Shown: positions 26,377 to 37,264, counted from the stretch's first letter. The stretch: DNA of 64,000 nt from an uncultured Methanoregulaceae archaeon (GCA_963701095.1 OY969564.1:288001-352000), one strand, 5' to 3'. The notes: generated by a model not told the origin, from the sequence alone. A program made the numbers and translations.

Positions 26377-27066
26377 TTAGTCGTCGTGGCCGTGGAGAAT
26401 AATAAGTGTAATCGTGCGATCACTTCCTGCCTGCAACGCTTGATTTTTAAGAGCCTCGCAAGAAGTTTCTACATTCTCATCATTTATTTCCACAACCGAC
26501 TTGATTTCTTCCCGTTTAACGTAATCATACAATCCCGAGGAGCTAAGGACCATAAAAGAATTTAGGAGATTTACCCGGTGGAACTCCGAATCTTTGAGCA
26601 CGATCGGTTCACCCAACGTATGCGAAATAACCTTCTTTAATAATGAACCTGATTTCTCGGCAAAGGGTATTTCACGAGGGATAACAATGCCACTATCCGG
26701 AGAAATATAGTACACGCTTCCGTTTCCCGTATCAAGAATCGTGCAGTCCAGATTATCATCAACAAGACACGCACAGAGATCCGTCCCCAAACCGGCATGT
26801 AGTCTTTTTTGCCCATCTCTCTCACCGATTTTTAAATCCGCGTCTGCGACTGCTTTTACAAGAATTTCTGACGGGTCATGGGTATTGTTTTTTACGGTGT
26901 CCCGCAGGGAATTGATCGCAATTTCGCTTGCTTTACGTCCAATGCCTGAACGCCCACTGGCAACCGCAAAAACTTCATAGGATCCAATCCTCTCTGCACA
27001 GAAAGAATCGTCGTTTGTTTCCGAAACTCCCCTTTCAGATATTGCAAACGAGTGGATATGAGCCAT
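26377..27066 (-). CDS. PP2C-like protein, probably catalytically degenerate
   Basis: PP2C layout (SERG..NDDS, FAVASG, GTDL, LSSSGL, SDRTITLI) with the DG aspartates replaced by Ser. Confidence 0.7.
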   Translation of the reverse strand: MAHIHSFAISERGVSETNDDSFCAERIGSYEVFAVASGRSGIGRKASEIAINSLRDTVKNNTHDPSEILVKAVADADLKIGERDGQKRLHAGLGTDLCACLVDDNLDCTILDTGNGSVYYISPDSGIVIPREIPFAEKSGSLLKKVISHTLGEPIVLKDSEFHRVNLLNSFMVLSSSGLYDYVKREEIKSVVEINDENVETSCEALKNQALQAGSDRTITLIILHGHDD

Positions 27067-27129
27067 ATAGTTGCTTCAAACGGATTATTGAAGAATAAAT
27101 ATTTGGATACTGACAACATCCTGCATAAT

Positions 27130-27825
27130 ATGGACAGACCTAAATTATTGTCGACCAGTGCAGTGGCTGAGAATTACGCAGGGTATACGTACCACCTTGA
27201 CGGGGAACTGGTTCCTGCACTTACGGTTGAATTAAAACCGGGACAATCGATCTTCTTCGAGCATCACATTCTGTTGTGGAAGGATACGGGAATAGTGATA
27301 AGCGTTCGTCCTATGAAAGGTGCCATGAAACGGATGATTGCCGGGATGCAGATATTTGTGACCGATGCAACCGGACCGGGTCAAATTGCATTTAGCCGTG
27401 ACGGGCCCGGTCACGTTTTTGGTTTTCATATGAAACCCGGTCAGGAGATTGATGTTCGTGAACATCAATTCCTTGCCGCAACGTCAAATCTCGAGTACAG
27501 TTACATACGGGTAAAGGGGTTTGCAAATATGATGTTTGGTGGCACCGGGTTTTTCATTGATAAGTTCCGGTGTTTAACCAATGATGGGATTCTCTGGATG
27601 CACGGTTACGGAAACGTATTCGAAAAGGTACTAGGTCCGGGTGAACAAATTGATGTCGAACCCGGCGGATGGCTCTACAAAGACGCAAGTGTGTCAATGG
27701 AAACAAACATCCAGTCGATATCGACTGGTCTCCTCGCGAGCATGAACATTATTACGAATCGGTTCACTGGTCCGGGACGGATCGCATTGCAATCGATGTA
27801 TATACATTACGCGTCTGGGGAATAG
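27130..27825 (+). CDS. AIM24 family protein
   Basis: LKPGQSIFFE, GPGQIAF, FGGTGFF, HGYG, FTGPGRIALQS. Confidence 0.85.
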   Translation: MDRPKLLSTSAVAENYAGYTYHLDGELVPALTVELKPGQSIFFEHHILLWKDTGIVISVRPMKGAMKRMIAGMQIFVTDATGPGQIAFSRDGPGHVFGFHMKPGQEIDVREHQFLAATSNLEYSYIRVKGFANMMFGGTGFFIDKFRCLTNDGILWMHGYGNVFEKVLGPGEQIDVEPGGWLYKDASVSMETNIQSISTGLLASMNIITNRFTGPGRIALQSMYIHYASGE

Positions 27826-27937
27826 ATGGATTTCTTTCTTTTTTGGTGATAAACAGTCCTTTAATTTGGTAACACATGGATAATTTTGAACCAACACAAA
27901 ATACTGATTGTTGTCATGAGAGCCCAAAACAGAAAGA

Positions 27938-27995
27938 TGCGAGGGATGGGATTCGAACCCAAGAACTCCTACGAGACTAGGCCCTCAACCTAGCG
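27938..27995 (-). pseudogene. Displaced 3' part of host tRNA-Leu(GAG) (left junction)
   Basis: Reverse complement gives CGCTAGG-TTGAGGG-CCTAG..GGGTTCGAATCCCATCCCTCGCA; D arm and 5' acceptor strand absent. Confidence 0.9.
27978..27995 (+). repeat. att core, left copy
   Basis: TAGGCCCTCAACCTAGCG, identical to 35956..35973. Confidence 0.88.
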
Positions 27996-28036
27996 GTAAA
28001 CAAAGGCACTATATCTTATGATGCAGATTAAGAATC

Positions 28037-29152
28037 ATGGAAGATGTTTTGACAAAATACAAGCGGCTCGATCCGGTCAATCATCGGTATTTCGTTGATT
28101 ATCTACGGTACCTCCAGCTTCGTAACATCCGGGAAACGACGATCACAACGAAACTCTGGAAGATCTACGGATACCTGATCTGGTCAGACTTCCGGGATGC
28201 GAAGACAGCACAACCGCAGGATCTCGAAAACTTCTATCTTCAGCGGAGAAAGGAGCGATCACCCATCACGGCATTTGGCGATATCCAAGAGCTCGCCCTG
28301 TTCTTCCGTTGGTTACTCCCGGACCGTGAGCTTGTCAAGTTCAAACCACAGAAGCCCCGGACCGACCTCCCGCCGGAAAAGGTCTTACAATCTGATAATA
28401 TACGGGGAATACTGGAATACTGCGAGTCACAGCGGGATCGTGCCCTGGTTGCCGTGGCATGGGATAGTGCGGCCCGTATCTCGGAGCTGCTCGATACCAA
28501 TATCGGGCACGTTGCCTTTGACCGGTACGGAGCGGTAATAAGTGTGAGCGGTAAGACCGGACGCCGTAATATCCGGCTCGTGAGCTCAGTACCGGACCTT
28601 CAGGCATGGATCAATATCCATCCTCTCAAAAACAACCCGGACGCCCCCCTCTTCGTGACTTCCCGGAGGCGTGGGAATACTTCACTATCCCGGCTCACCG
28701 TGCGCCGGGTGCAAAACATCTTTGCCCGGCTGGGAGATCTTGCAGGTTGCCAAAAGGACACCAATCCCCACGCATTCCGGCACGGGCGTCTTACAATCCG
28801 GGGCAAGCAGCTTACCGAGTCCGAACTTCGGGAGTATGCCGGATGGTCCAAGGGATCGAGCATGGCACAGGTCTATGTGCACCTGTCCAGCCGGGATATC
28901 GACAATAAGATCCTGGCGGTGGATGGGATCAAGCCGGAAGAAGAACCGGAGGCGGACCCGATGGCAGCGCAGATATGCCCCCGATGCAAGAAATCAAACG
29001 CCCCGGATGCGATGTACTGCGACAGATGCAGCATGGCACTTAATGATGAAGCCATGAAAAATATCACTGTGCTCCAAAATATCAATGAGGATCCGGACGC
29101 TCATGCGGAGTACGCGGTATGGCTGAAGGCGCGAAAAGAGAAGATGGTTTAA
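28037..29152 (+). CDS. Tyrosine integrase with C-terminal Zn ribbon
   Basis: AARISE (R), GKTG (K), HAFRHGR (HxxR), AGWS (W), VYVHL (Y); CPRC..CDRC; starts 41 bp from the att core. Confidence 0.93.
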   Translation: MEDVLTKYKRLDPVNHRYFVDYLRYLQLRNIRETTITTKLWKIYGYLIWSDFRDAKTAQPQDLENFYLQRRKERSPITAFGDIQELALFFRWLLPDRELVKFKPQKPRTDLPPEKVLQSDNIRGILEYCESQRDRALVAVAWDSAARISELLDTNIGHVAFDRYGAVISVSGKTGRRNIRLVSSVPDLQAWINIHPLKNNPDAPLFVTSRRRGNTSLSRLTVRRVQNIFARLGDLAGCQKDTNPHAFRHGRLTIRGKQLTESELREYAGWSKGSSMAQVYVHLSSRDIDNKILAVDGIKPEEEPEADPMAAQICPRCKKSNAPDAMYCDRCSMALNDEAMKNITVLQNINEDPDAHAEYAVWLKARKEKMV

Positions 29153-29419
29153 TTTCCCCCCGCGCATCCTCATTTTTTCTTAAAATCAAATACACCTTTT
29201 TGTAAAAATTCAAAGCGATTTTTCCGATTAAATCTCAGACCATTACAGAGTATTTTGTGTGGTTATTATCCTTGAATACCTTAAAGAAAATTCCAATTAT
29301 TATATTCTTTAAATCTTTAAAGGTAATTCTTGTAAAATTGGCTTAAATTTTAGAAATAAGCCCAAATATTGATTTTATTACCAAGAACGTTATATAGAAG
29401 AATTTTTGTATCTTTATTT

Positions 29420-29644
29420 ATGCAATCACCAACAGTAACAATACGGATTGATGCGGCCGCCCATGAAAGAGCTAGAAAAGCAGGACTATGCGTCAGTAAA
29501 ATTGCATCCCAAGCCCTAATTCGGGCAGCGGATACTCTTGAAGGAACGACAAGCAAAACCAAAGAACCCCGGGAGAGCCGCCAAGCATCACCCCGGGATA
29601 CCACTCCAAGAGGAGGGCAGGAAAATGTCAGTCCCTCAACTTGA
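29420..29644 (+). CDS. Small ribbon-helix-helix-like regulator
   Basis: TVTIRID..HERARKAGLCVSKIASQAL pattern; follows an AT-rich intergenic region. Confidence 0.55.
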   Translation: MQSPTVTIRIDAAAHERARKAGLCVSKIASQALIRAADTLEGTTSKTKEPRESRQASPRDTTPRGGQENVSPST

Positions 29645-29816
29645 TAAACCCGTTGTACCTGTACGGGTGCCTCGTGCGACAGTAGAGGCCTACCGGAAAA
29701 CAGAACCACTATTCACAGAGTTTCTTATTGAATCCGGGCGGGTTATCGTTCTAGAAAAAATGCCGAATTTGTCGGCGGGAGCGCAGGAGCATGGCATCAA
29801 ATCTTCTGCCGTCTGA
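29625..29816 (+). CDS. Small hypothetical element protein
   Basis: GGAGG RBS before ATG 29625; part of an overlapping ORF chain. Confidence 0.5.
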   Translation: MSVPQLDKPVVPVRVPRATVEAYRKTEPLFTEFLIESGRVIVLEKMPNLSAGAQEHGIKSSAV

Positions 29817-30021
29817 AATTCCCCAGGATCGAACTGACGTGTTGCACCTCTTACGGCAGCACGACGACGATATCGACGAGTTAAGCACGGACCAGCTCGC
29901 CGCCATTCGGAAAATTTACCGACTCGACGACCCTCGCACCATCACCGAACTTATCGCGGTAGGAGAGATCACTGTCAGTAAGAGGGATATCGAAGAAATT
30001 AAAGCGGGTGGGTTCGAATGA
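29791..30021 (+). CDS. Small acidic hypothetical element protein
   Basis: AGGAG RBS; overlaps both neighbours. Confidence 0.55.
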   Translation: MASNLLPSEIPQDRTDVLHLLRQHDDDIDELSTDQLAAIRKIYRLDDPRTITELIAVGEITVSKRDIEEIKAGGFE

Positions 30022-30284
30022 CAAAAAAAACGGCTCTCCAAAAGATGTTTTTTCTTCACGATCAGGAATGGTACATCCGCTCCCGGTTGGATGGTGCTAT
30101 CATCTCCCCTTCTGCGAGAGGGTGGGCCGAACACAATCCGAAGCTATCTCACCGTATAAACCGGGTAATCCCGGCGGGCAAAATCACCGATGATGTTTGG
30201 ATCGATTTCGTCAAAACCGAGATCGATCAGGCAAAAAAGGAAAACCGCCGGCCCGCTCCATGGGCCGAGGGGTTGCTACAATGA
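30018..30284 (+). CDS. Hypothetical element protein
   Basis: ATGA overlaps at both ends. Confidence 0.55.
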   Translation: MTKKTALQKMFFLHDQEWYIRSRLDGAIISPSARGWAEHNPKLSHRINRVIPAGKITDDVWIDFVKTEIDQAKKENRRPAPWAEGLLQ

Positions 30285-32041
30285 CAGCATCAGCACCGGC
30301 AGAACCCCAAGAGCATCCGGTACATCTTTGCTGCGATGATTATCCCGAGCCGGACGATCTCAAGAAGAAGGATCACATGGTCGGCAATGCTCTTGCCAAT
30401 GCCAAGACTTCCGAAGAGCTCGCCGCTGCGTTTAAAATGCGGCAGGATCAGGTTGCTGCCGAAGCCCCTACAGAGGCCTCAGAAGCCATGAAAACACCTA
30501 CCACGCCCGAACCCACTCCAATACCCAAGAAAGCCCCACAGAACGCGAATACGGCCATCCCTGTAGCACAAGAACCGCCCCGGGTACACCATGCGCCATT
30601 GCCGGCAACCCCGGCCAACATCTGGCAGTTTGATCCAGTCCATCATAGGCTTGTATTCACAGCAGCCGAGAAGGGAAGACAAGACCGTAAAAGCCTCCAG
30701 TGCAAGGAGTTTTCCCGATCGGATCTTGGCAACTCGCAACGATTTACCCTCCGGTTTAAAAGAGACGTTCGGTACAGCTTCCCTTTCAAGAGCTGGTTTA
30801 TCTGGGACGGCACCCGCTGGCAACAGGATAACCAGGGGCTGGTGTACGAGATCGGCAAGGAGGCCGTGTTTCGCCTTGGAGACGAGGCCCCACTCTACGA
30901 GTCTGAAGCAGAACGAACGGCAGCGTTTAAGTGGGCGGCAAGCAGTCAGAGTAAAAGCGCTATCGAAAACCTTGTTGCACTCTCTCGGTCATCGCTCCCG
31001 ATATCACCGGACGAACTCGACCGGGACCCGTACTTGTTCAATACCGTAAACGGCACTCTCAATTTGAAATCGATGGAATTCACAGGGCACCGGCAAGAAG
31101 ACTATATCACGAAAATGGCCGGGGGGGTCTATGTCCCTGAAGCCGAATGCCCTCTCTGGCAGGATCACCTTCAGCTTGTGTTCAGCAATGATGATGAATT
31201 CATCACCGGATTTCAGGAAATGTGCGGATATTCTCTTATTGCCGGCAACCCAGAGCAGATAATGTTTATTCTGCACGGGACGGGGAAGAACGGTAAAAGC
31301 GTTACCCTTGAAACGCTCTCTCGTGTGTGGGGGGAGTATGCGGTCAACATTGCACCGGAAAGCCTGATGCAGCGAAGGAATAACGAAGCCCCCCGGGGAG
31401 ATATTGCCCGGATCGCTGGCGCCCGGCTGATTACCTCATCTGAAGGTGAAGACGGCGCCCGGCTTGCTGAATCCATCATAAAGATGCTTACCGGCGGCGA
31501 CCGTGTAACCGTCCGGCGACTCTATGAAAAAGAGTTTGAGTTCATCCCCACCGGCAAAATCTGGTTAAGCACAAATCACAAGCCCGTGATATTTGGCACC
31601 GATGTTGCCATCTGGCGCCGTCTCTGGTTGGTCCCATTCAATGTCACGATCCCAGAAGAGCGGCGGGATACTCATATCTTGGAAAAGCTCGCGCTTGAAA
31701 GCCCGGGGATCCTGAACTGGTGCCTGGAAGGATTGGGAAGATATTTCACCAAGGGCAAACTTCTCAAACCGGCCCGGATCGCTGAAGCCTCCGAGACATA
31801 CCGGGATGAAAGCGATCTTCTAGGAGAGTTCCTCGCGGACCGGTGCATCATGCAGGGAGAGGTAGACAGGCGTGCATTGCTTGCTGAATACAAAAACTGG
31901 TGCAATGATGTTAATGAGAAACTCGTTACCAGCAAGCGTTTTGCCTCGCTCCTGCGGGACAGGGGAGTAACAGAACGCAAAGATCACGGTAACCGGTTAT
32001 GGGTGGGAATCAGCCTTGTTGGGCAGGTAAAATTTACCTAA
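30281..32041 (+). CDS. P4/D5-family replication protein (D5_N + SF3 helicase)
   Basis: SDLGNSQRF, WFIWDGTRW, NGTLNL, YITK, GTGKNGKS Walker A, IKMLTGGD..RRLY, TNHKP, WRRLWLVPF; ATG 30281 coupled to upstream stop. Confidence 0.9.
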   Translation: MTASAPAEPQEHPVHLCCDDYPEPDDLKKKDHMVGNALANAKTSEELAAAFKMRQDQVAAEAPTEASEAMKTPTTPEPTPIPKKAPQNANTAIPVAQEPPRVHHAPLPATPANIWQFDPVHHRLVFTAAEKGRQDRKSLQCKEFSRSDLGNSQRFTLRFKRDVRYSFPFKSWFIWDGTRWQQDNQGLVYEIGKEAVFRLGDEAPLYESEAERTAAFKWAASSQSKSAIENLVALSRSSLPISPDELDRDPYLFNTVNGTLNLKSMEFTGHRQEDYITKMAGGVYVPEAECPLWQDHLQLVFSNDDEFITGFQEMCGYSLIAGNPEQIMFILHGTGKNGKSVTLETLSRVWGEYAVNIAPESLMQRRNNEAPRGDIARIAGARLITSSEGEDGARLAESIIKMLTGGDRVTVRRLYEKEFEFIPTGKIWLSTNHKPVIFGTDVAIWRRLWLVPFNVTIPEERRDTHILEKLALESPGILNWCLEGLGRYFTKGKLLKPARIAEASETYRDESDLLGEFLADRCIMQGEVDRRALLAEYKNWCNDVNEKLVTSKRFASLLRDRGVTERKDHGNRLWVGISLVGQVKFT

Positions 32042-32097
32042 CTCTCCAATCCACTTTTCAACCACTTTCCAAAAAAAAATAAGCCCGTATAATGGCT

Positions 32098-32260
32098 AGG
32101 GGCAGCAAGGGGCAGATAATTATCTATTTCCGTAAAGTCTTCATGAAGAATCCTATAGAAAAAGTTTACAAAATAGGTATCTATGTGCCCTCTTCTGCCC
32201 TTTTCAAAAAAGAACCTCAAATTATAGAAATACGTTCCAATAAGCAATCTCTCCTGCCCT
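32098..32260. other. Putative replication origin (GGGCA iterons around AT-rich core)
   Basis: AGGGGCAG at 32098 and 32108; inverted GTGCCCT/CTGCCCT at 32185, 32195, 32254. Confidence 0.5.
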
Positions 32261-32553
32261 TTGTGAAATGGACGGTAGGAAAAACGCTCCTTTCTTCCCC
32301 CAGGTCCTTGCAACGAGGTAAGCATAGAGGTAATTATAAAGGCCATCATCACCAATGAAAACTTTTTTCATTCAGATACATGAGATCCCCGGACAACTTA
32401 ATTCCTGTAACGACTGATGACCGGGTCTCTCACACAATTATCTTATTGTAGAAAAATATGGGGGATTTTTACCCAAAAGTAAAGTGGACTTGGATAAGGA
32501 CAACCCCGCTTCAAAGACCCGGCCGGGGATCTCCAATGGAAATATACCCCAAC

Positions 32554-32590
32554 CTTTCACAAAACGAACGTTTATTGAAAGTATATAAAT
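32554..32590 (+). promoter_or_regulatory. Putative serine-recombinase site abutting the resolvase TATA box
   Basis: CTTTCACAAAACG-AA-CGTTTATTGAAAG imperfect inverted repeat (11/13) followed by TATATAAAT. Confidence 0.5.
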
Positions 32591-32614
32591 ACAACAACCA
32601 ACAAAGGTAGTATT

Positions 32615-33199
32615 ATGAAAGAAGTGGGGTATGCAAGGATAAGTACCGATAAACAGGTACTTGATGGCCAGTGTGAAGCTCTTCTCAAAATAATGCCCCG
32701 GGGGGATATCTACGCGGACACCTGCTCCGGTACAATACCCGCCAAAGAACGCCCGGGCTTTACTGCACTAATGGCAGCGGTGAAAGCGGGAGGAGTGAGT
32801 ACGGTTGTGGTCTATGAATTCTCCCGGCTGGGACGCTCGTATGCGGATTCAGTCCGAACAGTTCTCGACCTTGAGGATCTCAACATCACGGTCCGGTCTC
32901 TCTCCCCCAAAGAGGCATACATTAGCACTTGCGCTGATAAAGGCATGAAACGCATAATGCTGACGATCGCGCTGACATCGGCAGAGCGGGAGCGGGATCT
33001 ATTAAGCGAGCGGACAAAACAGGGCCTTGTGGCAGCCCGGGCACGCTTGAAGGTATCTGGCCGGGAACTGGGACGACCCACAATACCGTTTAACCGTGAA
33101 TTTGTCGAGGCAGAGAAGGCACGAGGGCAGACACACAAACAGATAGCCGCATCGTTAGGAATGGGTGTTACAACTCTCTGGAAGCGCATGAACGAATAA
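32615..33199 (+). CDS. Serine resolvase/invertase
   Basis: GYARISTDKQ, ERPGF, FSRLGRS, ERTKQGL, GRP, C-terminal HTH. Confidence 0.92.
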   Translation: MKEVGYARISTDKQVLDGQCEALLKIMPRGDIYADTCSGTIPAKERPGFTALMAAVKAGGVSTVVVYEFSRLGRSYADSVRTVLDLEDLNITVRSLSPKEAYISTCADKGMKRIMLTIALTSAERERDLLSERTKQGLVAARARLKVSGRELGRPTIPFNREFVEAEKARGQTHKQIAASLGMGVTTLWKRMNE

Positions 33200-33420
33200 G
33201 AGCGATCAACCCACCATTCTTTTTAATCATCACCCCCAACGCACAATAACGCCCGTATATGGCAGCAATAGCCAATCGGAGCCCGTATTTTCGTTTCACA
33301 GGCGAAAAACGGTTTTTATATACTGCCAGGGAGGCCAGATAAAAATCCGGGAATTTTCACCTTTTTGGAGGCCTACCCGCTTCTACAAAAATCTTAAAAA
33401 AATGGGTTTTTTTGAGGTCG

Positions 33421-33546
33421 TTATAAATTGGAAAGTGCCCCGAGTCCAAAACAAAAGACCACCAAGGCGATCAGGGCGATGAAACCCAGTACGATCGCTA
33501 CGGATATCCCGGTGGCAAATTTCCCGCAGAAAGATAGCAGGTCCAT
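33421..33546 (-). CDS. Small single-TM peptide (41 aa)
   Basis: MDLLSFCGKFATGISVAIVLGFIALIALVVFCFGLGALSNL. Confidence 0.4.
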   Translation of the reverse strand: MDLLSFCGKFATGISVAIVLGFIALIALVVFCFGLGALSNL

Positions 33547-33654
33547 TCTCTCAAACACTCTTTGATTGGGTTTTTCCCCTTGACACGATAAAACGTGTGG
33601 GGGCTCTGGATAAAATAACAAGATTAATCCCAATCGAGTATCTAAAACGACATT

Positions 33655-34260
33655 ATGAAAAAGAGCATTATTTTTACTGGGGTATTGCTTTTGATCATCG
33701 CGGTATTTGTTGCCGGGTGTACATCAAATTCCCCGGCCAGCACCACCACTCCGGTACCAACAACCCCCCAATTATCAACGGTTGACCCCGCAGATATGGC
33801 ACTAACGTTATCAGACGTGCCTACAGGTTTCACGATAAAAGAGGGATCAGAAAAGACGTCTTCAGATGTTAGTCAAGAATATATTAGAGATGGGTGGGAA
33901 AAGGGATATTATGTACAGTTCGACCGAGTGAATACTGCCACTCAAGATTTCGAAATTTTAGAACAAACACTGAGCGTTTATCCAATTGGTCACGTGAACT
34001 TGGTCATGACACAGGCGAGTACCGAAATACTACAAACGGCAAATGCGACCAATACCGTTGAAAAATTATCAGATCCTAGCATTGGTGATTCGAGTGCGGC
34101 ATTTAGGACAAAAACCAGCATCGATGGTTTTCCGGTCACAGGGTTTACAATATTTTTTGTAAAAAAAGACGTATTTGAAGCGTTAGACCTAGAGGGCACA
34201 TCGGCGGATTATGCAACGCTCAAGAACTTGGCAAACGTTTCAGTCTCGAAGATCAGATAA
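33655..34260 (+). CDS. Putative lipoprotein (element cargo)
   Basis: MKK + hydrophobic core + VAGC lipobox, Thr/Pro linker. Confidence 0.75.
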   Translation: MKKSIIFTGVLLLIIAVFVAGCTSNSPASTTTPVPTTPQLSTVDPADMALTLSDVPTGFTIKEGSEKTSSDVSQEYIRDGWEKGYYVQFDRVNTATQDFEILEQTLSVYPIGHVNLVMTQASTEILQTANATNTVEKLSDPSIGDSSAAFRTKTSIDGFPVTGFTIFFVKKDVFEALDLEGTSADYATLKNLANVSVSKIR

Positions 34261-34403
34261 ATAACCAATCATATTTTTCGTTTTTTTAGCAAACTCACGT
34301 CAGAAAAGTTACTGTTTACGCTGTTCAGGCTGTTCAATAAAACAAGTAAAGTTGTTATTAACGCAAGTGTACTTTATATCCTTTGAAAGTCATATGGCAG
34401 GGT

Positions 34404-34571
34404 ATGGCAATACAACACGAGCGAGCAGGCGTTGTATATCAGCGTACCTCCGTGGATATACCCGCCGATGTAAAGGCCGATGTCGATAAGTACGGAATCA
34501 ACGTCACGCAGACATCAGTGGAAGCCCTGAAAAAGGCAGTAGAACAGAAGAAGGCAGAGGTGCCGGCATGA
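34404..34571 (+). CDS. Small RHH-like regulator
   Basis: RTSVDIPADVKADVDKYGINVTQTSVEALKK; TATA-like CTTTATAT at ~34371. Confidence 0.55.
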   Translation: MAIQHERAGVVYQRTSVDIPADVKADVDKYGINVTQTSVEALKKAVEQKKAEVPA

Positions 34572-34708
34572 GCACCGATTACAACGACTTAAATAAGATC
34601 GACAATGACGGGAATCCGCTTGTTGGTAACGCCGGTGCGATTGCCATCCAACAGAGGATACTAACCGCACAAATCAAGAGCAGGGGGCCAGCACATGACC
34701 GACAGTAA
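34568..34708 (+). CDS. 46-aa hypothetical protein (not in ORF track)
   Basis: GAGGTG RBS, ATGA overlap; MSTDYNDLNKIDNDGNPLVG... Confidence 0.5.
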   Translation: MSTDYNDLNKIDNDGNPLVGNAGAIAIQQRILTAQIKSRGPAHDRQ

Positions 34709-34925
34709 CCCCGAAGAAGAAGCCGGCCAGAACTCCGCCGACGTGATGAACACCGGCAGAGACGTGCCCCTGACTCCCGGCGAGATCATGAACAGAGACC
34801 GAAAACAGCGGGCAGAGGCAGCCCTCCGGGAAAACGAAGCGTACCAGCGCGGTATGGCCGAAGGGATGCGGAAGTTTAACAGCACACTGTTGAATCCCGA
34901 GAACAATCAGGAGAAGGTGCAATAA
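34695..34925 (+). CDS. Hypothetical element protein
   Basis: Overlapping ORF chain; helical AYQRGMAEGMRK segment. Confidence 0.5.
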   Translation: MTDSNPEEEAGQNSADVMNTGRDVPLTPGEIMNRDRKQRAEAALRENEAYQRGMAEGMRKFNSTLLNPENNQEKVQ

Positions 34926-34926
34926 T

Positions 34927-35434
34927 ATGGCCGTTTCCGAAATGCAGATCGAGTACCGGGTCCGGCCCGTCATAGCCGAGATGGAAAAAGGGCTTTTTAA
35001 GGTCGTGGATGAACTCCAGAAGGAAACACTGGCTATAAACGTTGCCCGGGTCCGCTCGGATTTCATGCAGGACCTGACATCTTCACTAGGGCAGTACCCG
35101 GGAGCTCCGGTACTTTGGAGACGACGCCCCGGAGATTCATGCAGTCCCGCCTTCACAGCGAGAGAAGGAAAAGATAACGCTGAACCGGCCGGTCCGGGAA
35201 GTCCTCCGGGTTGTCAAGTACTGTCAGGACAATCCCCGTGTGACCGGCGAAGATTTACAGCGGCTCCGGTCCACGGCATTCAGGTCCTTCCCCCCGCATC
35301 TGAACATCCAGATCATCCCAATTCTTACCGCTTACGGTGAGATTTTCGTGAAGCTCGCAGAGTTCCAGCGGCTGTTACGGTTCGATGCGGAAGAAGAGCC
35401 GGCGGACAGCATTCTCAAGGCCCCCAAACGATGA
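34927..35434 (+). CDS. Hypothetical element protein (~168 aa, frameshift near 35090)
   Basis: Removing one G from the GGG near 35090 joins the start of ORF 34927 to the frame of ORF 35240..35434. Confidence 0.5.
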
Positions 35435-35565
35435 CACCGCCGGGGCACAGCACCCGGAGGCCAAAGGGGATCGTGTGCAGACAATGCGGACGGAGGTTCG
35501 CGGACTGGATGACCTTAATCCTGCACAAACCCTGTAAGGGCGTACCAGTCAAAACCAAACCATGA
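35431..35565 (+). CDS. 44-aa zinc-finger micro-protein (CxxC-x12-H-x2-C)
   Basis: MTPPGHSTRRPKGIVCRQCGRRFADWMTLILHKPCKGVPVKTKP; ATGA overlap with upstream stop. Confidence 0.55.
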   Translation: MTPPGHSTRRPKGIVCRQCGRRFADWMTLILHKPCKGVPVKTKP

Positions 35566-35813
35566 CCGGGGGGGCGAGCGGGTTTGTTACATTTTCCCGC
35601 GATGAACCCCTGCAGCGCCACCGTTACTGCATTTTTTACACACCCTGGGGGGGAAATTACAACCCCCCGGGGATCGTGCCGTTTTGTAACCGCAATTATC
35701 CGTCAATAAAGCCCCACCAAGGCACTTCTTTTGGCAAAAGTCCCTGCCGATGGGTAAAAGTATGCGGTAAGTGAAAGAAAGGCCGGTTTTAAGAGAAACA
35801 AACTTCAGAAAAG

Positions 35814-35898
35814 TGCGAGGGATGGGATTCGAACCCAAGAACTCCTACGAGATTAGGCCCTCAACCTAACGCCTTTGACCTGGCTTGGCTACCCTCGC
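35814..35898 (-). tRNA. tRNA-Leu(GAG), complete, inside the element
   Basis: GCGAGGG/CCCTCGC acceptor, TTAGG-TTGAGGG-CCTAA anticodon arm, long variable arm, GGTTCGAATCC T arm, discriminator A. Confidence 0.95.
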
Positions 35899-35955
35899 CC
35901 TTTACTTTTTTTGAGGGATTATCTTACCGAGCAACGCAGTGCCTAAACCTTGTCA

Positions 35956-35973
35956 TAGGCCCTCAACCTAGCG
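35956..35973 (+). repeat. att core, right copy
   Basis: TAGGCCCTCAACCTAGCG, identical to 27978..27995. Confidence 0.88.
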
Positions 35974-36000
35974 CCTTTGACCTGGCTTGGCTACCCTCGC
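35956..36000 (-). pseudogene. 5' half of host tRNA-Leu(GAG) (right junction)
   Basis: GCGAGGGTAGCCAAGCCAGGTCAAAGGCGCTAGGTTGAGGGCCTA then non-tRNA sequence. Confidence 0.9.
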
Positions 36001-36258
36001 CCAGATAAGAATTGCACTGCGACTGTCGCCGGTGAGGCCGGCTTATCCCGCTTCTGTGCCATAACAAAAAGGTTGTCTATCTAAAAGAATGTTATGGCCA
36101 TTTTTTCGTAATCCACGTCAGAACACGTATTCCGGAATCAGGTTGGCTAGTAAACACCGGTTATTTTCAAACAGAATATATTTTCCTATTGTTTGTATAC
36201 GTTAATGGCATGCCGGAAGCATACATGTATATTTATCTACGTTATACCCGGTGAACAT

Positions 36259-36760
36259 ATGTGGTCAGATATTATCCACGAATTTGCAGACTCGCCGTCC
36301 CAGGGTCGCGTTGTCCGGTTCCTCCTTGAAAACGGTTTTGGGGTTAACGAGGAAGGAAGGATCTGCTGCAATGATATAGAGATCCCGGCAACGTCAGTCG
36401 CAAAAGCGATTGGTTCGGATCGCCGCGTCGTGGATTCTACTGCACGACGCATACTGGACCGCCCTTTCCTGCGGGAGATCTTTCTTAATATGCGGGCGAC
36501 GCCGGACCTGAGCCGGGTTGCAGAATCCTTGGGGTTCTCAGTTATTGTTGTCATGCCCCGGGATGCGAATGAGCGTGGTATCATCGGTTCCGCCATCCGT
36601 GTTATTGCTGACCATTCTCTTGCGATCCGTCAGATATTTGTCACTGACCCCCAGTCTGTCTGAGGATCCCAAATTGGTAATCATTGTCGAGGATCCGTTA
36701 CCTGCAGGTGTGGTAAATGAGATCCGGTCCCTCCCGCAGGTGCGTCAGGTCATCATTTAA
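36259..36760 (+). CDS. ACT-domain regulator of amino acid metabolism (frameshift near 36655)
   Basis: MW..F..SPSQ..V..LLENG, DRRVVD, IRQIFVTDP; C-terminus in ORF 36518..36760. Confidence 0.8.
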
Positions 36761-36766
36761 AAAACG

Positions 36767-37264
36767 TCAATGCGTGAGCAGTTCCACGTCGTTAGCCAGC
36801 CGATACATCCGTTTTCGGATCTTCCGGGGAAGGTTAACGGCAGCGGCAATTTCCTCCTCGATGATTACCCGATTAGAACCGGCAATAAGGTTGTCACTGT
36901 GCGTGACGATTTTTTCCTCGATAGTTTGTGGCATACAATCACGGGGTAAAAGTCCAAGCAACGTGCATTCATCTGCAGTCAGGCCGGCTCCGGTGTGACA
37001 TTCCACGATTCTTGCTATCTCTTCACGAAATCCCTTTTCGCGCAGGAGATCTGCACCCCGTTGTGCATGACCGATTGAATGTGTATTCCCGCGACCAATA
37101 TCATGGAGCATCGCGCCGATAGTTACAAGATTTCTATCAGCGAGATCGGACCGCTTGGCATACTCCTCTGCGCAAGTGCATACCGCTTTACAATGAGCGA
37201 TTACCTTCGGTCTGACGCCGCCCTTACGGAGCAGGGAAATACAACGAATCCGGTTCTCAGGCAT
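36767..37264 (-). CDS. HDIG-domain metal-dependent phosphohydrolase (TIGR00295-like)
   Basis: LHDIGR, HTGAG, EEKIVTHSDN. Confidence 0.85.
   Translation of the reverse strand: MPENRIRCISLLRKGGVRPKVIAHCKAVCTCAEEYAKRSDLADRNLVTIGAMLHDIGRGNTHSIGHAQRGADLLREKGFREEIARIVECHTGAGLTADECTLLGLLPRDCMPQTIEEKIVTHSDNLIAGSNRVIIEEEIAAAVNLPRKIRKRMYRLANDVELLTH

Follow-up and report, generated by a model that had tools for sequence, protein, structure and literature searches.

The 64,000-nucleotide window analysed here carries, in a Methanoregula archaeon, a 7,978-bp integrated element, both ends of which are formed by an 18-bp core matching the anticodon arm of tRNA-Leu(GAG). Taken together, the data make it very likely that a small, plasmid-like element has integrated here in a tRNA-dependent manner, apparently the first archaeal case described of a tRNA-dependent lysogeny strategy that is already known in bacterial viruses. 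The element codes for a tyrosine integrase, a P4/D5-type primase–helicase and a serine recombinase, and a complete tRNA-Leu(GAG) lies close to its right end (Table 1).

Table 1. Features of the integrated element and its flanks (positions counted from the first nucleotide of the window).
Feature	Position	Strand	Basis
Host left flank, AIM24-family gene	27052-27825	+	Pfam AIM24, 1.8e-36
attL: 3' part of host tRNA-Leu(GAG), position 25 to 3' end, G43 and C27	27938-27995	-	Sequence, repeat
Left core copy (anticodon arm), 18 bp	27978-27995		Sequence
Element end, integrase side: attP P side and int upstream region	27996-28036		Comparison with G044 and L102
Tyrosine integrase, 371 aa, intact ORF, C-terminal CxxC...CxxC zinc ribbon	28037-29152	+	Pfam, PHROG
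Three small overlapping ORFs (29538-29816, 29791-30021, 30018-30284)	29538-30284	+	ORF calls
P4/D5-type primase–helicase, 614 aa	30197-32041	+	Pfam, PHROG, NCBIfam
Serine recombinase (resolvase/invertase type), 194 aa	32615-33199	+	Pfam Resolvase 1.5e-29; PHROG DNA invertase
ORF, 201 aa	33655-34260	+	ORF call
Small ORFs (34383-34571, 34695-34925, 34927-35340)	34383-35340	+	ORF calls
3' flank of element tRNA cassette	35747-35813	-	Comparison of Methanoregula elements
Complete element tRNA-Leu(GAG), U27-A43	35814-35898	-	Rfam 49.7 bits; ARAGORN
Spacer, 57 bp, element tRNA to core; core-proximal part is attP P' side	35899-35955		Homologous spacers
attR: 5' half of host tRNA-Leu(GAG), positions 1-42, C27; includes right core 35956-35973	35956-36000	-	Sequence
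Native leader of split host tRNA, with putative promoter	36001-36100	-	Conservation in relatives, ahead of intact tRNA-Leu(GAG)
Host right flank, TrpY-family-like regulator, 156 aa	36193-36663	+	NCBIfam TrpY_fam

An earlier note on this DNA had described three tRNA-Leu(GAG) pieces, two of them partial and sharing an exact core, and sequence inspection, Rfam and ARAGORN place all three where it had located them. The core, TAGGCCCTCAACCTAGCG, is indeed present in both partial pieces, which lie at the two element ends, and attB overlaps the host tRNA gene. The attL piece lacks tRNA positions 1–24 and the attR piece positions 43–76, and no functional tRNA is rebuilt at either junction. Moreover, neither piece gave an Rfam match at E<=1 when positions 27000–37000 were scanned; the sole RNA match there was the complete tRNA (gathering score 29), which ARAGORN places at 35813–35898 with anticodon GAG. 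The attL piece matches the intact tRNAs of element-free relatives in their 3' part, and the upstream flank of attR is the native upstream region of those tRNAs, in which a TATA-like sequence, TTTTAGATA (minus strand, about 36078–36087), is a candidate promoter of the split tRNA. A repeat search paired 27930–27995 with 35806–35871 (66 nt, 94% identity) and 35854–35900 with 35956–36002 (47 nt, 98% identity); these repeats are far above chance level, and other genomes show the same arrangement. As the earlier note had also reported, the complete copy differs from the partial pieces solely at 35853 (T versus C) and 35869 (A versus G), the two partners of pair 27–43. Both flanking pieces have the host alleles (G43, C27) and the full copy has both element alleles.

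The integrase matches Pfam Phage_integrase (PF00589; 54.5 bits, cut-off 27.1) and the PHROG integrase family, scores under the NCBIfam XerA cut-off, and shows weak Pfam matches to its zinc ribbon. Its translation contains ARISEL, HAFRHG and VYVHL, which may hold the R-H-R-Y catalytic residues of tyrosine recombinases. An SSV-type integrase was ruled out, as the ORF is intact and the core ends 41 bp upstream of its start codon; the intervening segment is 95% identical to that of G044. The primase–helicase assignment rests on Pfam D5_N (2.1e-28) and DUF5906, PHROG DNA primase (9.9e-116) and NCBIfam primase_Cterm (262 bits). Searches of Pfam and PHROG with the three overlapping small ORFs, and of Pfam, PHROGs and NCBIfam with the 201-aa ORF, were without match, and the first of the last three small ORFs has a weak CcdA-like match under the cut-off. 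The right-flank regulator scores 175.1 bits against TrpY_fam, under the cut-off of 180, and an orthologue is present in 51 of 61 genomes searched, G000 included.

If integration breaks the host gene, an intact tRNA should be found at the empty site. The closest relative, G066, is element-free and 84% identical to this locus at the nucleotide level over 9 kb. It has AIM24 (87% nucleotide identity), then on the far side of that gene one intact C27-G43 tRNA-Leu(GAG), and then the right-flank genes. This is the empty site that the earlier note had predicted, and it supports that note's proposal of a core-only attP that disrupts its target. Orthologous loci hold tRNA-Leu(GAG) in 17 of 19 cases. Fourteen of the 17 display the native C27-G43 allele and a host-type upstream region, with neither spacer nor half, which gives 14/14 for the C27-G43 allele among element-free Leu(GAG) loci; three native Leu(CAG) loci are likewise without spacer or half. 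In G003 and G062 the element is gone and an intact U27-A43 tRNA, the spacer and the 5' half are retained, with the tRNA abutting the host flank. Element-free relatives of this kind had been named beforehand as evidence against a host gene broken by integration; they nominally exist, but not as the ancestral state. Judged by sequence comparison, both are derived scars, given that the integrase brings the same cassette of spacer and tRNA to other tRNA-Leu loci.

One of these loci is in the same genome, where a second element, with a frameshifted integrase gene that is 94.5% identical at the nucleotide level, splits a tRNA-Leu(CAG). It carries the same tRNA, altered solely at the anticodon (G34 to C34), next to a homologous 57-bp spacer; the genome has no other Leu(CAG) gene with Rfam support. 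Spacers homologous to that of the element occur at six other loci, this different chromosomal target among them; the 3' flank of the cassette is conserved across Methanoregula elements with differing tRNA bodies, and copies 100% identical to the element tRNA were found in G003, G044, G062, G077 and G114. These comparisons indicate that the tRNA cassette belongs to the element.

A search of 301 Methanomicrobiales genomes found the integrase family in 40. All 16 related integrated elements with both ends readable, from 11 genomes and one metagenome contig spread over Methanomicrobiales, share the three-piece layout for which the earlier note had suggested searching, although many of them are related and the counts therefore overstate independence. 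Seven are from the genus, eight (8/8) from other genera of the order (integrases 43–50% identical; the far end was unresolvable in seven of 15 distant loci) and one is on contig L100. Common cores in relatives are about 9–17 bp, against 18 bp here, and in 16/16 the anticodon of the element tRNA is that of the target (GAG 4, CAG 6, TAG 3, TAA 3). The unintegrated form, with tRNA, spacer, core and integrase, is seen in two metagenome contigs, L101 and L102. In L102, sequence like 35805–35973 is joined via the core to sequence like 27979–28551, with an integrase start 89% identical, so that the circle junction predicted for the element is present in a relative. L101 is a tailed-virus fragment in which tail genes, tRNA-Leu(CAG), spacer, core and integrase are contiguous. 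In both contigs, attP consists of arm, loop and arm alone between the integrase side and the spacer, with no tRNA half.

Compensatory recoding of the anticodon stem, first noticed as the single pair change described above, is seen in 15/15 tabulated elements: the element tRNA differs from its target in 1–3 stem pairs with all stems 5/5 paired, and the 7-nt anticodon loop is identical. In L100, two non-anticodon loop bases differ. The tRNA body of six of the 15 differs from that of the host at 10–15 positions with the anticodon still matching. In four lineages with near-identical bodies, differences fall at 12/40 stem sites versus 2/300 other sites (Fisher 1e-10; 7e-7 with each pair counted as one event). 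Native orthologues differ at 4/140 stem sites versus 9/1050 others, a stem excess of about 3-fold (p=0.056); native anticodon stems are thus somewhat more variable than the rest of the molecule, and a foreign origin of the tRNAs could account for some of the divergence in the stem. The recoding probably keeps the element's own tRNA from being an attB-like site for the integrase. The attP arms are themselves imperfect, and no clear rule separating accepted arms from element-tRNA arms emerged among the compared elements.

In the proposed mechanism, attP would be no more than an anticodon stem-loop of the tRNA-Leu type (P arm, 7-nt loop, P' arm), imperfectly copied and situated 41 bp upstream of the integrase gene. 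The integrase would recombine it with the corresponding stem-loop in the host tRNA-Leu(GAG), with crossover in or next to the loop. The host gene would be left as the attL and attR pieces, and would stay split because attP is without a tRNA 3' or 5' half. The complete element tRNA, 57 bp from attP, would replace it; after integration it would follow closely downstream of the host promoter and the orphaned 5' half, oriented as they are, and the change from C27-G43 to U27-A43, with pairing kept, would hide it from the integrase.

The element-supplied tRNA is present as a gene, and the anticodon match in all 16 elements, together with the scars that keep it, suggests that it functions as the replacement. 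It is presumably expressed, with transcription starting at the host promoter or in the spacer, and is likely to be needed by the host after integration. The earlier note had asked whether Leu(GAG) was encoded only once in this genome, and it is not: ARAGORN calls a diverged, 92% identical copy at genome positions 187357–187441 (Rfam 39.2 bits, above threshold), which makes strict dependence of this genome on the element copy less certain. A search of 107 other genomes of the genus matched the tRNA part of this diverged copy but not its flanks, and surplus tRNA copies elsewhere in this genome are degenerate. In addition, tRNA-Leu(UAG) might read CUG codons by wobble, which makes the Leu(CAG) cases weaker evidence of necessity.

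The strongest competing view accepts the layout and regards the tRNA as unneeded cargo, for codon supply or against tRNA-targeting defences, with the anticodon match a by-product of capture from the target locus. Several element tRNA bodies are identical or nearly so to the host's, as expected after capture, the second Leu(GAG)-like gene fits, and the available text of PMC10865867 raises counter-defence as a possible selective force. This view is nevertheless unlikely, given the six elements with strongly diverged bodies and matching anticodons, the two elements here with one tRNA retuned at position 34 alone for two targets, and a tRNA that stays intact in scars where extra copies decay. Conventional integration would have attP bring the tRNA 3' part, make 35814–35898 the rebuilt host gene and explain the spacer and 5' half as an older host duplication. 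The 66-nt repeat does run 8 bp past the tRNA 3' end, and the full tRNA, spacer and 5' half do stand in element-free G003 and G062, but the data already contradict this account, which is very improbable: homologous copies of spacer, tRNA and 3' flank occur at more than one chromosomal target (the Leu(CAG) locus of the same genome, Leu(TAG) and Leu(CAG) loci of others), the 14/14 element-free Leu(GAG) and three native Leu(CAG) loci show no trace of the supposed duplication, host alleles stand on both flanking pieces and element alleles on the full copy, and unintegrated L101 and L102 hold tRNA, spacer, core and integrase together.

Some archaea have split tRNA genes, and the host halves might still be used by RNA-level joining, the 5' half having kept its native promoter region. 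The pieces, however, overlap by the entire 18-nt anticodon arm and do not abut, no complementary leader or trailer was seen on reading the flanks, the 3' piece has no evident promoter and sits immediately upstream of the divergent integrase gene, and a complete tRNA is retained in every scar and element; there is scarcely any likelihood that the halves are joined. An assembly artefact from repeated tRNA sequence, although short-read contigs of public runs do break at repeats, has a negligible probability when the same arrangement is present in 11 genomes, several of them single-contig, and in independent metagenome contigs.

The preferred reading, a replacement tRNA brought by the element, can be extended tentatively, and with rather less than even confidence, to a module of integrase, attP and tRNA common to plasmid-like elements and tailed viruses across Methanomicrobiales. 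This module would continually turn over host tRNA-Leu genes by isoacceptor hopping, in which it retunes the anticodon of its own tRNA, with recoded stems invisible to the integrase and, once the cargo has gone, the tRNA left to the host as its new gene, a state that the G003 and G062 scars would represent. The tRNA body found with G34 and with C34 in two elements here points to such hopping. Within the genus, one native locus is occupied by two widely differing tRNA-Leu(CAG) bodies, which would accord with an element having left its tRNA as a host gene. If this is true, the evolution of tRNA-Leu sequences in these archaea would be driven in large part by mobile elements, and stem recoding would be a self-protection device comparable to the proposal that disrupting tRNA genes shields them from integrases. 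The elements provide natural comparative evidence, in that the tRNA tracks the target anticodon and the stem stays different, and hosts can apparently keep the tRNA permanently. Island finders that expect a rebuilt tRNA and one fragment would misplace the borders of such elements, and integration vectors based on such integrases would need to include the tRNA.

Of the known archaeal systems, SSV-type ('suicidal', type I) integrases are likewise tyrosine integrases that target tRNA genes, but in the available accounts integration splits their int ORF, within which attP is located (PMC7253208, PMC8371274), whereas the int ORF here is intact with attP 41 bp upstream. With conventional anticodon-loop integrases (Williams 2002, SSV1) the element shares the tRNA target, the anticodon loop as overlap region and the stem arms as core-type sites; there, attP has a tRNA half and the intact gene is rebuilt (PMC8371274, as available), whereas the present junctions, unlike those of tRNA-restoring islands and proviruses, rebuild no tRNA. 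The same review, which covers archaeal tyrosine recombinases and dates from 2021, states in its available part that an uninterrupted tRNA gene is regained on integration; the 16 resolved elements are at odds with this.

No archaeal description of tRNA-dependent integration was found in the literature consulted, nor did the earlier note know of one; the strategy itself is known in bacterial viruses (PMC10865867, in the part available). Prophage Lj965 of Lactobacillus johnsonii, as cited there, is a bacterial prophage that also leaves the tRNA unrebuilt and encodes a cognate one. Pelagiphages HTVC019P, HTVC025P and HTVC119P split a host tRNA gene with an att sequence that does not complement it, a phage tRNA of the same kind being 'likely used instead', and in HTVC025P a tRNA-Leu gene adjoins the integrase gene (Zhao et al., 2018, bioRxiv 10.1101/410191). 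The element resembles them in splitting its target and bringing a same-kind tRNA, but they are bacterial T7-like phages, and the available text of that preprint does not describe stem recoding, scars or family-wide isoacceptor tracking for them.

The closest parallel is the tRNA-dependent lysogeny of the actinobacteriophages Fionnbharth and other K4 phages, cluster L and Gaia (Guerrero-Bustamante & Hatfull, mBio 2024, PMC10865867). According to the available text, these share with the element a tyrosine integrase, an attB inside a host tRNA gene, a short core and the absence of a rebuilt tRNA; the phage tRNA is required by experiment there, and by inference here. tRNA-dependent integration, shown experimentally in actinobacteriophages alone, would thus be extended to Archaea and to non-viral integrative elements. 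Their cores, as given in that text, are about 8–10 bp, against 18 bp here and down to about 9–11 bp in relatives, and the Fionnbharth tRNA overlaps gene 37 and has its own demonstrated promoter, whereas the present tRNA lies 57 bp from attP. Unlike the actinobacteriophages, the element has an archaeal host and is plasmid-like, without virion genes, though its relative L101 is viral; its crossover would fall at the tRNA-Leu anticodon loop, and one integrase family follows four Leu isoacceptors.

Re-reading of the sequence confirmed the layout described in the earlier note, namely three tRNA-Leu(GAG) pieces, an exact 18-bp core shared by the two partial ones and a two-base difference at pair 27-43. 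The complete gene is the sole tRNA called in the window by ARAGORN (minus strand, 35813-35898), and in Rfam nothing else in 27000-37000 matches an RNA family at E<=1 (35814-35898 for this gene, 49.7 bits, the gathering score being 29). Two bases alone, 35853 and 35869, set the full copy apart from the pieces; they form pair 27-43, which is C-G in the pieces and U-A in the full copy. A repeat search returned one match of 66 nt with 94% identity and another of 47 nt with 98%. Between the cores no virion genes were found, and most 500-bp bins of the element have a G+C content of 0.51-0.58, versus 0.44-0.47 in the flanks. The whole window sits in a single 2.63-Mb contig of its genome (G000).

Features of the window element, and targets of the seven Methanoregula elements read at both ends
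Feature	Position in window	Strand	Anticodon of target tRNA-Leu	Basis
Host tRNA 3' part (attL), 58 nt	27938-27995	minus		read from sequence
Host tRNA 5' half (attR), 45 nt	35956-36000	minus		read from sequence
Exact 18-bp core, two copies	27978-27995 and 35956-35973			read from sequence
Tyrosine integrase, intact, 371 aa	28037-29152			Pfam/PHROG-based
P4/D5-type primase-helicase	30197-32041			family matches
Serine recombinase	32615-33199			family matches
Several small ORFs	between cores			family matches absent
G000 first element (in the window)			GAG	
G000 second element			CAG	
G044			GAG	
G114, split over two contigs			GAG	
G015			TAG	
G053			CAG	
G077 second locus			CAG	

Just 2 of 41 genomes yielded the flanking AIM24 gene at E<=1e-20, and the right-flank gene was therefore taken as the synteny anchor instead. 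This gene is TrpY-family-like (175.1 bits, under the cut-off of 180) and has orthologues in 51 of the 61 genomes searched, G000 included. When 19 of the orthologue loci were scanned for tRNA, a tRNA-Leu(GAG) gene lay beside the anchor in 17 and none was present in the other two. Fourteen of the 17 hold an intact C27-G43 gene, with the same upstream region as that beyond the window's 5' half; the remaining three are of the U27-A43 type, with the spacer (the 57 bp between full tRNA and right core in the window) and a 5' half ahead of the tRNA. The element-free site with one intact tRNA that the earlier note predicted was seen in the closest relative, G066, where the AIM24 gene (87% nucleotide identity), a single intact tRNA and the right flank (84% over 9 kb) line up in the same order as the window once the element is taken out. 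Of 20 public runs covering part of 27500-36500, all available as contigs and none recorded as RNA, four were examined; their contigs contained no empty-site or circle joint, but contigs end at the repeats and so are uninformative. In the window (36001-36060) and some relatives, about 45-55 nt with a GC-rich inverted repeat lie between a conserved promoter-like motif and the 5' end of tRNA-Leu(GAG), as seen in a comparison of loci L022, L023, L025, L027, L028 and L030; in other species the motif abuts the tRNA. This stretch may be an insertion or a long leader.

On the conventional reading, the full copy would be the rebuilt host gene, and the spacer with its 5' half an older host duplication. 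This is ruled out by the cassette of a second related element in the same genome (G000:C1:2535903-2543714; locus L094), which splits a tRNA-Leu(CAG) gene elsewhere. It repeats the three-piece layout and the element-side flanks, has a homologous spacer of 57 bp, and its full tRNA is that of the window with anticodon CAG as the sole change, i.e. one tRNA body retuned at position 34 only. Since the same tRNA-spacer cassette is found at a different, Leu(CAG), target, the cassette belongs to the element. The second integrase is 94.5% identical to that of the window in nucleotides and is frameshifted (two matches, residues 1-204 and 183-368). An ARAGORN call of Leu(CAG) at 2214249 was rejected, having no Rfam match at E<=1 and lying inside an ORF, which leaves the element copy as the genome's only supported Leu(CAG) gene. 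The second element may be immobilised, with the host now dependent on its tRNA. Fragments 70-85% identical to parts of the element cargo (about window 32810-33536 and 35555-35789) also occur at G000:C1:2613902-2617084 and 2623376-2623779, with tRNA pieces absent nearby.

Integrase relatives were found in 17 of 108 genus genomes (E<=1e-40) and in 40 of 301 genomes of the order, from 12 of 43 genera (E<=1e-60); none was found in viral contigs. Close relatives in named genome records comprised three loci, on contigs of G044 and G015 and in a Pacearchaeota genome; the Pacearchaeota integrase lies beside tRNA-Asp and was set aside as unrelated. Within the genus Methanoregula both ends were read for seven elements. 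Fifteen loci were fetched from outside the genus, with integrases 43-50% identical, and in every one the integrase gene adjoins a tRNA-Leu 3' part that stops at the anticodon loop. Eight of these could be followed to the far end, and each has the host 5' half, a spacer and a complete tRNA-Leu there. Of the other seven, three lack a tRNA within some 40 kb, and four stop at contig ends or were not extended. A sixteenth element with both ends read came from metagenome contig L100; metagenomic locus L095, seemingly the contig region of the G044 locus over again, was left out of the count. The three-piece layout, which the earlier note suggested seeking in integrase homologues, is present in all 16 elements read at both ends.

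In each of the 16 the anticodon of the element tRNA is that of the gene it splits (GAG 4, CAG 6, TAG 3, TAA 3), although many of these elements are kin and the counts overstate independence. Even so, the matching holds across tRNA bodies that are 0 to 15 other positions apart from the host's. Among the 15 elements tabulated in the analysis the 7-nt loop is identical, one to three anticodon-stem pairs differ and both stems are fully paired; in L100 the loop differs at positions 32 and 38. At the G077 second element (L048 about 13600, and L059) the attL loop reads GAG, and the attR loop and element tRNA read CAG, which suggests recombination between sites differing at position 34 or later mutation in a dead fragment. 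In G044 (L046 2399-2522) the host flank outside attL is 88% identical to the 3' flank of the element tRNA (window 35747-35871), reflecting either an older element remnant next door or a lineage resembling the source of the cassette. The Leu(GAG) locus of G077 (L049, G077:C1:1962000-1981000) has an orphan 5' half that itself carries U27; no integrase or 3' part was found within 17 kb leftward, and its flank matched none of the loci compared. It may be a scar or a very large element.

In four lineages in which the body of the element tRNA is almost that of the host, differences fall at 12 of 40 stem sites versus 2 of 300 other sites (Fisher 1e-10, or 7e-7 if each pair is counted as one event). 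The corresponding figures for native orthologues (n=14) are 4 of 140 and 9 of 1050. The elements of G053 and the G077 second locus have the same stem-loop on different bodies, that of G053 being its host's. This pattern fits homogenisation of element tRNA bodies with the neighbouring host pieces, the stem being kept different. The earlier note proposed that the recoded stem keeps the integrase off the element's own tRNA, a role to which we give an even chance. It is plausible because, with a perfect attB in direct orientation some 100 bp away, attP could take part in a deletion; such a recombination would remove the spacer and the tRNA's 5' half. No rule telling attP/attB arms from element-tRNA arms was found by reading them.

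The unintegrated arrangement is seen on two metagenome contigs. L102 (1,080 nt; integrase start 89% identical) has a part like window 35805-35973, comprising tRNA and spacer, joined via the core to a part like 27979-28551 on the integrase side; a relative thus shows the circle junction predicted earlier. L101 (8,077 nt; integrase 62% identical) carries, in order, tail genes (Sipho_Gp37 and three tail-collar proteins), tRNA-Leu(CAG), spacer, arm-loop-arm and integrase, and the tail genes indicate that a tailed virus carries the integrase-attP-tRNA module too. Contigs L098-L102 show no terminal overlap of the kind expected of a circular molecule. Common cores are about 9 to 18 bp and centred on the loop every time, which places the crossover at the anticodon loop, as likewise described for the classical anticodon-loop class of tRNA integration (PMC8371274, available text).

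Complementation by the element tRNA is supported indirectly, by anticodon tracking, scars and decay of surplus copies. In G003 an intact U27-A43 tRNA is bordered on the left, at its 3' end, by 482 bp that match the element-free flank of G050 at 87% identity; beyond the tRNA come a spacer and the host 5' half. G062 has the same arrangement, and a second contig in its bin carries the native allele with the same flank. Recombination within the repeated 3' part evidently removed the element and left its tRNA in place as the gene of the locus. Elsewhere in G000, surplus tRNA-Leu copies of the element type are degenerate. Four such fragments (G000:C1:171875-171924, 371585-371671, 1070258-1070340 and 1099815-1099877), not called by ARAGORN and some with a spacer-like A-rich upstream stretch, look like debris of earlier visits by the element family. 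A diverged tRNA-Leu(GAG)-like gene at G000:C1:187357-187441 (L087; Rfam 39.2 bits) counts against strict necessity of the element tRNA in G000. It has a U27-A43-type stem and lies 180 bp from tRNA-Ser(TGA); only its tRNA part, and not its flanks, was matched in 107 other genus genomes, and it is possibly a relic of another element. Transcription of the element tRNA could start at the host promoter and run through the orphan 5' half, or a putative promoter in the spacer could drive it; some distant elements have longer spacers with A/T-rich motifs that by eye resemble the host tRNA promoter.

At the native Leu(CAG) locus in L039 (G115:C9) the host tRNA is reduced to roughly 18 nt of its 5' end, with about 60 nt after it and next a complete tRNA-Leu(CAG) whose acceptor stem differs; the replacement breakpoint is in the D arm, and the cause would be another type of element or else a derivative formed by deletion. 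Beside an acetyl-CoA-synthetase-like gene, one locus in the genus holds either of two tRNA-Leu(CAG) bodies that differ greatly, one of them resembling the Leu(GAG) body (L058 of G003 and L060 of G062 versus L032, L034 and L035 of G050, G070 and G043), consistent with past gene replacement.

According to the available text of a 2021 review on tyrosine recombinases of archaea, an unbroken tRNA gene is re-formed on integration (PMC8371274), and the portions available of a study covering 38 head-tailed proviruses from archaea (PMC11705971) and of the tycheposon preprint describe only conventional partial tRNAs. No archaeal description of tRNA-dependent integration was found in the literature covered, which lay outside supplements and subscription journals. 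Three papers mention both tRNA-dependent lysogeny and archaea, but judged by their titles and the openings of their abstracts they deal with other subjects than archaeal elements. The mechanism is already known in bacteria. The same design was described in 2018 for pelagiphages HTVC019P, HTVC025P and HTVC119P (10.1101/410191, as far as its available text goes). In tRNA-dependent lysogeny, shown experimentally for Fionnbharth and other actinobacteriophages, the short core leaves the tRNA gene unrestored and a phage-encoded tRNA of that isotype makes up for the loss (PMC10865867, accessible part). The anatomy of the window element matches this system as set out there, and what the genomes point to in archaea is an order-wide integrase-attP-tRNA-Leu module, carried on plasmid-like elements and tailed viruses.
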